A DNA stretch of 64,000 nucleotides from sequence record NC_054916.1. One strand, given 5' to 3'. This stretch comes from Escherichia phage vB_EcoM-G28. Position 1 is the first letter of the stretch, and every line of letters starts with the position of its first letter. The translations under genes and the position numbers were made by a program. The notes under the pieces are model-generated. The model was not told the DNA's origin and ran no database searches. It saw only the letters and a list, made by a program, of their open reading frames with translations. Below, one piece after another: positions 31,246-42,635 of this stretch.

Positions 31246-31459
31246 ATTTAACTTCCTCACCAGTACATAAATCGTATTCAACTAAACGAATAGGTTCATG
31301 AATGCCATATCCCTGAACAGAAATTTCTGTCGTAGGATAAATTCCATCAATATCACCCATATTCCAGGCTTCATTAAATTGCTGTTCGCCTGAATTACTA
31401 AACCACTCGGCGAAAGCATTTAGTACATCTTTAGAACCTTCAATAATTATCTTTGCCAT
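31238..31459 (-). CDS. Hypothetical protein (73 aa)
   Basis: ORF in track. Confidence 0.45.
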   Translation of the reverse strand: MAKIIIEGSKDVLNAFAEWFSNSGEQQFNEAWNMGDIDGIYPTTEISVQGYGIHEPIRLVEYDLCTGEEVKYD

Positions 31460-31821
31460 TATAAGCTCTCAGTAAAGGTACGAGCGATAACGTCGCGCTG
31501 CTGTTCCGGAGTCAGAGAGTTAAAGCGAACTGCATAACCTGATACACGGATGGTCAGCTGCGGATATTTTTCCGGATGCTTAACTGCATCTTCCAGGGTT
31601 TCACGACGCAGAACGTTAACGTTCAGGTGTTGACCACCTTCAATTTTAACTGTAGGCTGTGTTTCAATTTCAATTTCACGGGCGTGCAATCCATAGAAAA
31701 TTTCCGGGTCTACAAAAGAGTCCTCTTTAAAGGTTTTAGAGACAATAATTCGTGCTTGAATACCATCTTCAAAATAAATAGTACCTTTATGTGTGCCTTC
31801 AAGAATTTGATATGCTTTCAT
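31459..31821 (-). CDS. Autonomous glycyl-radical cofactor (GrcA/YfiD-like)
   Basis: C-terminal about 60 aa ([56 protein letters not shown]) carries the RVSGY glycyl-radical motif and matches E. coli GrcA as I recall it. Confidence 0.8.
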
Positions 31822-31828
31822 ATAAACC

Positions 31829-32161
31829 TCAATTAGAAAATAAATTTATCCAAGATTGTTCTTTAATTAAAAATGGCTCAGAATCATATGCCATTAAACT
31901 TTGGGTGATTAGTCCTTTAAAAGGTCCATCAATAAATTCCATGGTAAAATATGGAATTTTATTCATTAGCCGTGCATTAGGAGCAGTACATAAAACTCTG
32001 CATCCTTTGAATACACCCTTTTGTAATTTGTATTGCTTGGGATAAAATTCGCTCAAAATGTTATTATTTGCTAAAATTTCAAAATGATTCACCAATTTAT
32101 TTTTAATAGTTTTTGGCGAAAAATAGAGATATTCGAAAAGCTGTGTGTCTGTCATCATTGC
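31829..32161 (-). CDS. Hypothetical protein (about 110 aa from MMTDTQ)
   Basis: ORF trimmed to ATG overlapping the upstream double stop. Confidence 0.45.
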
Positions 32162-32694
32162 ATTCCGATTACGAAAAACTGTGGACGAGTAATACCACCA
32201 ATACAACATTTAATATTACAGCAGCAGTGTACAGTGTCAATATGGACACTATAAATCTTATCCATATCAGGAGATTTGACAGGCTCATCAATTATATACA
32301 AAATTCGCGAAAGCGATAAACCTCTGAACTTACTTCCTTTATTACCAATAAAACTGCGTACAGAATCAGTAAATAAACGAAAACGTATATCATCATTAGA
32401 ATAACGCGAAAATTCCTTTTTGATGTTATTTGCAGAAATTTTAGCATAAGCTGAAGTATTAGAAAGAACAATAACTGTTCCGCCATCATACAACCAATTA
32501 GCAGCGAAGTTAGTCACAGCAATTGATTTACCGGATTGACGTCCACCATCTAGTCGAAGTGTGCAATACTGTTTAAGTAAGTCTTCAAATGGCGGGATAT
32601 ATTCGTTTTTACAAATTTCTTCTACTCTAGCATCAGAATGGTGTGTAAAAGCATTCATCAGGGATAGATAAGGACCAGTTAAAAATGTTCTCAT
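32155..32694 (-). CDS. Small P-loop NTPase with C-terminal cysteine cluster (about 179 aa from MRTF)
   Basis: Walker A GGRQSGKS, Walker B-like LYIIDEP, C-terminal HCCCNIKCC. Confidence 0.55.
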   Translation of the reverse strand: MRTFLTGPYLSLMNAFTHHSDARVEEICKNEYIPPFEDLLKQYCTLRLDGGRQSGKSIAVTNFAANWLYDGGTVIVLSNTSAYAKISANNIKKEFSRYSNDDIRFRLFTDSVRSFIGNKGSKFRGLSLSRILYIIDEPVKSPDMDKIYSVHIDTVHCCCNIKCCIGGITRPQFFVIGMQ

Positions 32695-32835
32695 TTTGTT
32701 CTCTCTAGGTTTGGGCCATTCCATGGCGCATGAATTGTCCATTTCTGTATTTACCCATTACCGCACTTGGGCTCGACCTTATTACAGGTTGGCGGGAATC
32801 CCTTATAGAATCATAAGGTCCAGGTTGTTCCCATA

Positions 32836-33309
32836 TTATTTGAACGATTTAACGTACTGAATAGAACCTTTACTATTTACAAAGGCAATTTTACCATTTT
32901 TATTATACATGGTAGCAGTACGTTGATAGCCATAAGTTTGTTTACCAGATTGATAACCAACTAATGCGAAATTATCTTCACCCATTTTATTCTGTTTAGC
33001 GCGAATGCGTTCATGACCATGTGCCATAAGAACCTTAGCATCACCAGTTGCAATGGATCGACGAGTTTTTTCATCTTCAACTGTATTAACAAAGTCGTCA
33101 AATGAATCAAATTTAGCATGAGATTTATTATACAATTTTCCATCTACTGCATAATTATATCCCTGTACATCCATCTCAACTTCTGTACCATCATCCAATA
33201 CAGCAGTGATTTTTTGACCTTTTTTAAATTTCAAAAGATCAGTAAAAGATTCAGCAATAATTTGAGAATTAATAGCTGCTTCAGTGATAAATTCTTGATA
33301 TGTTTTCAT
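32836..33309 (-). CDS. Internal (capsid-packaged) protein with capsid targeting sequence
   Basis: N-terminus MKTYQEFITEA matches the T4 internal-protein capsid targeting sequence; ipII/ipIII position next to e. Confidence 0.7.
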   Translation of the reverse strand: MKTYQEFITEAAINSQIIAESFTDLLKFKKGQKITAVLDDGTEVEMDVQGYNYAVDGKLYNKSHAKFDSFDDFVNTVEDEKTRRSIATGDAKVLMAHGHERIRAKQNKMGEDNFALVGYQSGKQTYGYQRTATMYNKNGKIAFVNSKGSIQYVKSFK

Positions 33310-33362
33310 ATATTTCCTTTAAATATTTTAATTAGCAATTTGTCTCTTCAAGCAACTGTGAA

Positions 33363-33393
33363 TATACTATCACAATTCTAGGAGAAAGTAAAC
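33363..33393 (-). promoter_or_regulatory. Early promoter (GTTTAC, 18-nt spacer, TAGTAT) for the internal protein gene
   Basis: Conserved early-promoter repeat. Confidence 0.55.
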
Positions 33394-33397
33394 AACT

Positions 33398-34366
<969 letters not shown>

Positions 34367-38457: not shown

Positions 38458-38460
38458 TGG

Positions 38461-38533
38461 TCGAGGCAGTAGGGATCGAACCTACGACCCAGGACTTAGA
38501 AGGTCCTTGCTCTTCCTTCTGAGCTATGCCCCG
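38461..38533 (-). tRNA. tRNA-Arg: tRNA-Arg (anticodon UCU)
   Basis: Cloverleaf folded by hand: 7-bp acceptor stem, anticodon loop CTTCTAA, T-loop GGTTCGATCC. Confidence 0.85.
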
Positions 38534-38536
38534 TAA

Positions 38537-39202
38537 TTAAAATTTCATTTTTCGACCTTTAAACCATCCTTCTGGAATTGGGTCAGTTTTCTTAATACGT
38601 TTAGAAACTTTTTCATCTAATGAATGAATCCACATCATACCAAATTGGGAATTCTTTTCGCCCTGTTGGTGTTTATTTCTGGCGTGAGATTCTTTCATTT
38701 TATTAATAGTTTCATCTGAATGGGACTTACCCAAGAAAGATTTAGTATTTGAAAATTTCTCTCTATACTTAGGATTATCCCAAAGCTGTTTAAACCTTTC
38801 TGAACCCATTTTACGATATTTTTCTTTAAGGTCTGGGTCGTTCTCAAATCTGGTTTTAAAAGCGGCAACTCCTTTTAAGGAAGCTTCTTTCTTTTTATCC
38901 AAATATTCTTTAGTGTTTAAATGGTCCCAACCACCTTCACCACCTAATTTCAAATTATAAACGTCAGGGCGCTTTAAAAACTCTTCAGTCACAATATTCT
39001 TTTCTGACTCAAACATAGAGGTTTTATCGTCAAAGAACTCTAATATTTCTTTAGAGAAATTTTCTATACCATACTTGTCTTGGGCTCTTTTTAATAATTT
39101 ACCAGAACCCATATATCCATCATCTAAATTTTCGGTAGAATGAGCGCCTATATAGATTTTATTATTAATTTTATTTGTTATTTTATAAGTGTAATGGAAC
39201 AT
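38537..39202 (-). mobile_element. segB: GIY-YIG homing endonuclease SegB in the tRNA cluster
   Basis: 221 aa; N-terminal YTYKIT...IYIGAHS GIY-YIG motif; same size and location as T4 segB. Confidence 0.8.
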
Positions 39203-39241
39203 AAATATCTCCTATTTCTAAGAGTATTTATGTTCCCAAAA

Positions 39242-39313
39242 TATGGCCCTGGGTGGAATTGAACCACCATCTGGCGATTATGAGTCGCTTGCTTGAACCT
39301 TCCAGCTACAGGG
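39242..39313 (-). tRNA. tRNA-Ile: tRNA-Ile (anticodon CAU, lysidine-type)
   Basis: Cloverleaf folded by hand; anticodon loop CTCATAA; T-loop GGTTCAATTCC. Confidence 0.8.
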
Positions 39314-39319
39314 CCTTGA

Positions 39320-39392
39320 TATGCTGATTGACGGAATCGAACCGCCGACGTCCTCATTACAAGTGAGGTGCTCTACCTACTGAGCTAAATCA
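39320..39392 (-). tRNA. tRNA-Thr: tRNA-Thr (anticodon UGU)
   Basis: Acceptor GCTGATT/AATCAGC; anticodon loop CTTGTAA. Confidence 0.85.
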
Positions 39393-39399
39393 GCGAAAT

Positions 39400-39486
39400 T
39401 ACGGAGGCGATAGGATTTGAACCTATGAGTCGCCGGAGCGACTGCCGGTTTTCAAGACCGGTGCATTAAACCACTCTGCCACGCCT
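39400..39486 (-). tRNA. tRNA-Ser: tRNA-Ser (anticodon UGA), long variable arm
   Basis: Acceptor GGAGGCG/CGCCTCC; anticodon loop CTTGAAA; 87 nt. Confidence 0.85.
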
Positions 39487-39488
39487 CC

Positions 39489-39562
39489 AGTCTCCATACA
39501 AGGATTTGAACCTTGGACCTCCTGATCCCAAATCAGGCGCTCTACCAAACTGAGCTACACGG
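39489..39562 (-). tRNA. tRNA-Pro: tRNA-Pro (anticodon UGG)
   Basis: Anticodon loop TTTGGGA; T-loop GGTTCAAATCC; 2 nt from tRNA-Ser. Confidence 0.85.
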
Positions 39563-39575
39563 AGTAAATTAAATT

Positions 39576-39648
<73 letters not shown>

Positions 39649-39655
39649 AAACTTT

Positions 39656-39739
39656 GGTACGAGAAGTGGGACTCGAACCCACAAGGAAATCATTCCGCAG
39701 CATTTTAAGTGCTGTGCCTTTACCAATTTGACCATTCTC
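39656..39739 (-). tRNA. tRNA-Leu: tRNA-Leu (anticodon UAA), long variable arm
   Basis: Acceptor GCGAGAA/TTCTCGT; anticodon loop CTTAAAA; CCA encoded. Confidence 0.85.
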
Positions 39740-39740
39740 G

Positions 39741-39813
39741 CGCTGGGAATAAAGGACTCGAACCTTTGCATCCTGGAATCAAAATCCAGTGCCTTACCAA
39801 CTTGGCTAATTCC
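39741..39813 (-). tRNA. tRNA-Gln: tRNA-Gln (anticodon UUG)
   Basis: Acceptor TGGGAAT/ATTCCCA; anticodon loop TTTTGAT. Confidence 0.85.
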
Positions 39814-39912
39814 CAATTATTAACAAAGGCTCTTAAGCAAGAACCCTTGATGATAGAGGGTATTAATCAGTGCGGTATGAGTTAATAATAACAAATAATT
39901 CTTAAAGCATAT

Positions 39913-40773: not shown

Positions 40774-40801
40774 TTTATTCTCCTCAGTAGTTGATAGGGT
40801 A

Positions 40802-40831
40802 ATAGTATCACAACTAAAACCCTATGTAAAC
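40802..40831 (-). promoter_or_regulatory. Early promoter (GTTTAC, 18-nt spacer, TACTAT)
   Basis: Conserved early-promoter repeat. Confidence 0.6.
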
Positions 40832-40849
40832 AACTTTGTGAAATATTTA

Positions 40850-41140
40850 TTACAAAAGATTTTTAGCAATAATCTTGAGATGTGCCGCAGAAATGTGTTT
40901 AGCTTTAAACAACGCAGTTTCTTCAGCAGGAGAGATAACGATTGTAGCACCATCCTTTTTAGCAGACCACCCATCACCTAGGTAAACAGTACCTTTGATT
41001 TCTTCGCCATCAACCAGACTAATCATTGGTTTACCTTCTCGTCCTTTATTTGCTTTAATAACTTCAGAAGTAAGAGTAGCTTCGGTAATGGTAGAAACCG
41101 GGGTAGTTGTAGTAGAAGTAAATTCTTTAAATGTTTTCAT
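40850..41140 (-). CDS. Internal-protein-like gene at the ipI position next to 57B (96 aa)
   Basis: N-terminus MKTFKEF resembles the capsid targeting sequence, with ITE-A protease site; own early promoter. Confidence 0.55.
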   Translation of the reverse strand: MKTFKEFTSTTTTPVSTITEATLTSEVIKANKGREGKPMISLVDGEEIKGTVYLGDGWSAKKDGATIVISPAEETALFKAKHISAAHLKIIAKNLL

Positions 41141-41170
41141 TTTATTTTCCTAATTAATTTTGATGAGGTA

Positions 41171-41200
41171 ATAGTATCACTACCTCATCAGTATGTAAAC
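41171..41200 (-). promoter_or_regulatory. Early promoter (GTTTAC, 18-nt spacer, TACTAT)
   Basis: Conserved early-promoter repeat. Confidence 0.6.
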
Positions 41201-41212
41201 AACTTTGTGAAA

Positions 41213-41909
<697 letters not shown>

Positions 41910-41910
<1 letters not shown>

Positions 41911-42635
41911 TATAGTACCTTTAGTGTATTTTTAATTTTAGAAAAAAGTTCTTCAAGAGAACCATCGTTTGTAATTACTAAATCGCCATCACGAATTGGC
42001 AATCCAGCTTCTGTAATATGTGTATCATTGGATTTTTGACCAGGACGAACTACATGAATTACTGTAGCACCCATCGCCCTAGCCGCATCCATTTCATGAT
42101 CTTGACGGGTATCAGGAACGATATAATAATCATAACCTGAGTTAAATTTATCAAGATAATCTAAAGCAAATAATTTTACCCAGTACATGCGGTCGAAGTT
42201 ATTAACAATCAAATCCGTACCTAGGGCTTGCATCAGACGACGGACTGACCATTGATCTTCAATATTATTTATAACGTCAATAATCTTGTTAAATGCTACG
42301 GAATTAACTGATTCTTGTCCTTCGTCATCAAAAACAAACACACCCTTAATTGGGCTTTTACCATTAAGATAGCAAAATGCTTGTTCCATAATCGTGATTA
42401 CTTCTAATTTAGTCAGATTTAAATTAGTCTCACGATCATAGTCAATTCCTTCAAACTCTTTACGAGTTAAGCAAGGATAGTCAGTGTTTGCTGCAAATAC
42501 TCCCCATGCATAAGCCAATGCATCCTTAATAGGACCAGCAAGTTGGTATTTAACTGCAGAATAATTGCTCATGATAAAATCAGCAGTAGTATCTTTTCCA
42601 CTACGCTTTACACCGCTTAAAAAGATTAGTTTCAT
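41910..42635 (-). CDS. 1: Deoxynucleoside monophosphate kinase gp1
   Basis: 241 aa from MKLIFLSGVKRSGKDTTADF (P-loop). Confidence 0.93.

Follow-up and report, generated by a model that had tools for sequence, protein, structure and literature searches.

Organization of the ipI locus

The window analysed here is a 64,000-nucleotide stretch from the genome of Escherichia phage vB_EcoM-G28 (NC_054916.1). It belongs to a Tequatrovirus that is not T4 itself; the best database records are about 96% identical over 20 kb and about 98% identical over 2.8 kb. Around ipI the gene order is that of T4, running from gene 1 (dNMP kinase) through 57A, 57B, ipI, trna.4, trna.3 and trna.2 to the tRNAs. The ipI frame opens with an ATG codon behind an AGGA ribosome-binding site and encodes the precursor MKTFKEFTSTTTTPVSTITEATLTSEVIKANKGREGKPMISLVDGEEIKGTVYLGDGWSAKKDGATIVISPAEETALFKAKHISAAHLKIIAKNLL (Table 1). 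A preliminary description of this DNA had placed here a 96-aa product beginning MKTFKEF, next to 57B, with a plausible prohead-protease site written ITE-A. The open reading frame list confirms that frame on the minus strand, directly downstream of 57B, and the protease site is present, with the solved mature chain (PDB 2JUB) beginning right after it, at residue 21. Read from the sequence, both the targeting motif and the cleavage site are intact. When all six frames of the 64-kb window were scanned for the motif, only two open reading frames, ipI and ip4, proved to have a targeting sequence.

The upstream neighbour encodes a protein 100% identical to T4 gp57B over 151 aa, which scores 203 bits against the Pfam family PF23474 (Acb1, anti-CBASS nuclease). 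Two known anti-defence genes, 57B and ipI, are therefore adjacent, as in T4. On the other side, the tRNA cluster comprises eight genes (Arg, Met-anticodon CAT, Thr, Ser, Pro, Gly, Leu and Gln), and an open reading frame for a 221-aa GIY-YIG endonuclease is inserted between tRNA-Arg and the remaining tRNAs. The position and length of this frame match those of T4 segB.

Two promoter cassettes bracket ipI as copies of a 54-nt direct repeat that are 83% identical to each other. Promoter scanning and folding place a stable hairpin over the promoter in each copy (-17.4 kcal/mol and z -3.35 upstream; z -2.94 downstream), and the downstream copy is nearly identical to its T4 equivalent, with one SNP. 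Both cassettes fit the PeSL element of Arbiol 2010 and Comeau 2014, in which an early promoter and a stem-loop flank a variable gene, and its T4/PST consensus TTTACW-N17-TAYWAT (PMC4122927). Such PeSL elements have been proposed to mediate the shuffling of variable genes, including the internal-protein locus (PMC4122927). The earlier statement that T-even phages exchange this locus holds good in the light of this proposal and of the additional ip gene in phage ECML-134. That gene (NC_025449.1, 1433-1666), for an 'internal virion protein' of 77 aa, lies between ipI and trna.4 and is found neither in the window nor in T4. Despite this variation among relatives, the window keeps the T4 arrangement at ipI. 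As for late transcription, the nearest upstream copy of the late-promoter motif TATAAATA on the ipI strand lies at 42266-42273, inside gene 1, and the number of copies in the window equals chance expectation.

Table 1. Coordinates of features at the ipI and e loci and in the tRNA cluster; positions count from the first nucleotide of the window
Feature	Position	Strand	Basis or remark
ipI CDS, internal protein I precursor, 96 aa + stop	40850..41140	minus	Open reading frame list, Pfam PF11634, phrog_4363, T4 synteny
Propeptide with capsid targeting sequence, residues 1-20, MKTFKEFTSTTTTPVSTITE	41081..41140	minus	Ends at predicted gp21 site ITE-A
Mature IPI* (76 residues), predicted GmrSD inhibitor	40853..41080	minus	76/76 identity to PDB 2JUB chain A
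Extra ACT codon (Thr10) relative to T4, sole coding difference	41111..41113	minus	DNA alignment with T4
Ribosome-binding site of ipI, AGGA	41148-41151		
PeSL-type early-promoter/stem-loop cassette upstream of ipI	41160..41213	minus	TTTACA-N17-TACTAT at 41199-41171, 13-bp hairpin
Downstream PeSL-type cassette, serving as trna.4 promoter	40791..40844	minus	TTTACA-N17-TACTAT at 40830-40802
57B, ipI upstream neighbour, Acb1 anti-CBASS family	41213..41668	minus	T4 gp57B identity, Pfam
tRNA cluster	38458-39815		Eight tRNA genes
GIY-YIG endonuclease frame	38537-39202		221 aa
e locus	31459-33892		e to vs.6
e	33398-33892		Upstream neighbour of ip4
ip4/ipIV, 157 aa, MKTYQEFITE-AAINS...	32836..33309	minus	Directly downstream of e; Pfam, PHROGs, UniRef
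vs.8-like frame	32155-32742		
vs.6, 120 aa	31459-31821	minus	Pfam PF01228

Identity of the ipI product with T4 internal protein I

A sequence search of the PDB with the ipI product returned one match, chain A of 2JUB ('Internal protein I', E 1e-44). This chain, which starts ATLTSE at residue 21 of the product, corresponds to residues 21-96 without a single mismatch. Against the Pfam family PF11634 (IPI_T4, 'Nuclease inhibitor from bacteriophage T4'), whose curated cutoff is 25 bits, the product scores 180.1 bits and covers model positions 1-76 of 76, and PHROGs assigns it to phrog_4363, internal virion protein. By tblastn, 289 of 50,697 phage records contain an IPI homologue. One of them is T4 (AF158101.6), in which the match falls on the feature 'ipI: IpI internal head protein'. 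The gene thus belongs to the IPI_T4 family by its family score, its correspondence to 2JUB, its targeting sequence and the gp21 site after it, of the form I/L-x-E followed by A, and its position between 57B and trna.4.

The agreement extends to the DNA. Over 441 window bases spanning the gene and both flanks, the only coding change relative to T4 AF158101.6 is one in-frame 3-nt insertion (ACT); outside the CDS, the A-run that precedes the ATG differs in length by 1 nt, and one SNP lies beyond the stop codon. The T4 translation has 95 aa and reads TSTTTP, while the window product has 96 aa and reads TSTTTTP. This exact 96-aa sequence is already public on 31 contigs, including RB27 (AIT74508.1) and ECML-134 (AFO10664.1). 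The 5' 101 nt carrying the four-threonine allele are also 100% identical in RB27, where the gene is annotated ipI, and in vB_EcoM-101117BS1, PM107, PM108 and PM133.

These comparisons bear directly on the claim of the preliminary description that the remainder of the protein does not resemble T4 IPI. If that were so, the locus would hold a divergent internal protein that has only the targeting sequence in common with IPI and is aimed at an unknown defence system. The plasticity of ipI in relatives, where ECML-134 has its extra gene next door, fits such a replacement, as does the finding that the 289 records with an IPI homologue compare with 895 that match the surrounding 2.8 kb. The mature part, however, is 100% identical to T4 IPI*, and from one flank through the gene to the other the DNA hardly differs from that of T4, which leaves this reading a vanishingly small probability. 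The perceived lack of resemblance was an error; T4 IPII begins MKTYQEFIAEARVGAGKLE, and this may be the sequence with which the product had been compared. The alignment with known internal proteins that had been proposed as a check came out as a 100% match to mature T4 IPI*.

Divergent cargo at ipI is ruled out by the PDB, Pfam and DNA comparisons. The general class proposed earlier, a capsid-targeted, processed and injected anti-restriction protein at ipI, has stood, while the notion of a variant with an unknown target is refuted by sequence identity, the mature protein being the characterised IPI* with published targets in CT596 GmrSD, Eco94GmrSD and BrxU. Judged by its sequence, the window gene is the T4 allele of IPI and not a variant internal protein. 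With that candidate gone, the picture of ipI is unchanged: the gene encodes a textbook anti-restriction protein of published structure, processing and targets, in an allele that has already been deposited.

Length variation in the propeptide

The single coding difference from T4 falls inside the propeptide, a location that raises the possibility of a functionally altered allele in which the extra threonine affects targeting or the efficiency of gp21 cleavage, so that delivery of IPI* is reduced or lost. When 15 family members are aligned, only the segment from F7 to S16 varies in length, giving proteins of 94-96 aa, and its sequence is variable too (TSTTTP, TSTTN and ISPVAN). RB69 IPI reaches 99 aa through a longer annotated N-terminus and not through this segment. 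Positions of the targeting motif and the gp21 site are invariant or conservative across the same alignment; M1, K2, E6, F7, S16, T17, T19, E20 and A21 do not change, so that the STxTE-A site and the targeting residues persist despite the variation in the linker between them. In the related protein IPIII, targeting depends on positions 4 and 7 and processing on positions 8 and 10 (PMC9026906).

Moreover, the four-threonine allele is kept in several independent isolates, which argues for neutrality. An altered allele is on these grounds very improbable, and the extra threonine is treated here as a neutral length polymorphism, as the family alignment suggests. Its likely cause is replication slippage, since the inserted codon sits within a short CTA/ACT repeat.

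Proposed function and mechanism

In T4 internal proteins the propeptide serves as a capsid targeting sequence that has affinity for the scaffolding core, and the prohead protease gp21 removes it (PMC9026906). Cleavage of IPI by gp21 yields a mature IPI* of 76 residues (PMC3012670, PMC12409352). This protein has a compact fold; about 360 copies of it enter the head and are later injected along with the DNA (PMC3012670, PMC9026906). Its target is GmrS/GmrD (PMC3012670), and it shields glucosyl-hydroxymethylcytosine DNA from the GmrS/GmrD of E. coli CT596. A phage deleted for ip1 is restricted by Eco94GmrSD more than 10^6-fold, and co-expression of IPI* rescues cells from CT596 GmrSD (PMC4437046). 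Additionally, IPI* inhibits BrxU both in vivo and in vitro (PMC12409352). Of the three proteins Ip1, Ip2 and Ip3, each acts against a GmrSD variant of its own and gives no protection from the variants that the other two block (PMC12373910).

Since the mature product has exactly the sequence of T4 IPI*, this published biology would carry over directly to the window gene. We infer its packaging, its cleavage after Glu20, its injection and its inhibition of GmrSD from the T4 work by way of that identity. The N-terminal capsid targeting sequence would direct the 96-aa precursor into the scaffolding core of the prohead, where gp21 would cut after Glu20 (ITE-A) and release the 76-residue IPI*. About 360 copies would then be kept in the head with the DNA and injected together with it. 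Once in the cell, IPI* would bind and inhibit GmrSD-family type IV endonucleases and so save the glucosyl-hydroxymethylcytosine DNA from being cut by them. The mechanism calls for a prohead protease, and gene 21 is assumed to be present in this phage since it is a Tequatrovirus; the gene lies outside the window, which by position ends near genes 13-16. Taken as a whole, the reading of this gene as the ipI of a Tequatrovirus near T4, encoding a packaged, cleaved and injected GmrSD inhibitor, is given a probability of roughly 97%.

The second capsid-targeted gene and the e locus

The preliminary description had also pointed to a second gene with a targeting sequence beside e, a 157-aa frame beginning MKTYQEFITEA, and the open reading frame list bears this out on the minus strand. 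Its product matches the Pfam family DUF7412 (PF24183) over its full length with 319 bits, against a cutoff of 27, and is assigned to phrog_3155. Sequences at least 99% identical to it occur in 289 phage records, and the matches listed are 100% identical, for example those of RB33 and PP01, which bear the annotation 'IpIV internal head protein'; many T2-like phages have it unchanged. UniRef uses the same name, with phage T2 as the representative, and the protein has been seen on 459 contigs. The family is narrow, with 14 clusters that are all at least 60% identical. Ip4 is therefore a known, long-named internal protein.

Its similarity to T4 IPIII and IPII in BLASTP comparisons is essentially limited to the leader. 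No solved relative of Ip4 was found by sequence, the best PDB match, a designed repeat protein (E 6e-4), carrying no meaning. An AlphaFold2 model, built on a shallow alignment of 12 sequences, reached a pLDDT of 75.6 and a pTM of 0.69. When this model was compared by Foldseek with viral models (BFVD), the only significant match was 'Ip4 [Enterobacteria phage K3]'; the predicted fold is without an informative relative. A literature search for 'Ip4' returned no paper with that term and no target, unlike for Ip1, Ip2 and Ip3. Since each of those three blocks a different GmrSD, Ip4 may by analogy be injected to inhibit a further restriction enzyme of the GmrSD type, or another defence, a tentative suggestion that we put at somewhat below even odds. 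If true, it would concern an abundant, long-named gene family and nothing special to this window.

In the window, the e locus runs in the order e, ip4, a vs.8-like open reading frame, vs.7 and vs.6. In T4 the order is e, ipIII, ipII, denV and vs.8, whereas in PP01 it is e, ip10, ipIV and vs.8. Neither ipII nor ipIII is present here in the window, nor is the UV-repair gene denV, and ip4 sits where T4 has ipIII and ipII. The locus is thus of the T2/K3/PP01 type and not of the T4 type. At its far end, the vs.6 product carries a glycyl-radical domain (Pfam PF01228, 67 bits; motif RVSGYAV). We take this product to resemble the small stand-alone glycyl-radical cofactor GrcA/YfiD.

Comparison with known systems

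The closest known counterpart of the window gene is T4 IPI, with which it shares the identical 76 mature residues, the MKTFKEF start, the ITE-A site, the promoter cassettes on either side and the gene neighbourhood. It differs in one additional threonine in the propeptide, which gives 96 aa as opposed to 95 aa. The IPI proteins of RB27 and ECML-134 are identical to that of the window, including the run of four threonines, although the ECML-134 locus differs in having a second ip gene downstream of ipI.

For the second capsid-targeted gene, the counterparts are the Ip4/IpIV proteins of K3, T2 and PP01, which are 99-100% identical (99% for K3 Ip4), lie in the same place beside e and begin with the same MKTYQEFITE-A leader. 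A T4-allele ipI together with an e locus of the T2/K3 type makes this phage an example of the known mosaic shuffling among internal-protein genes.
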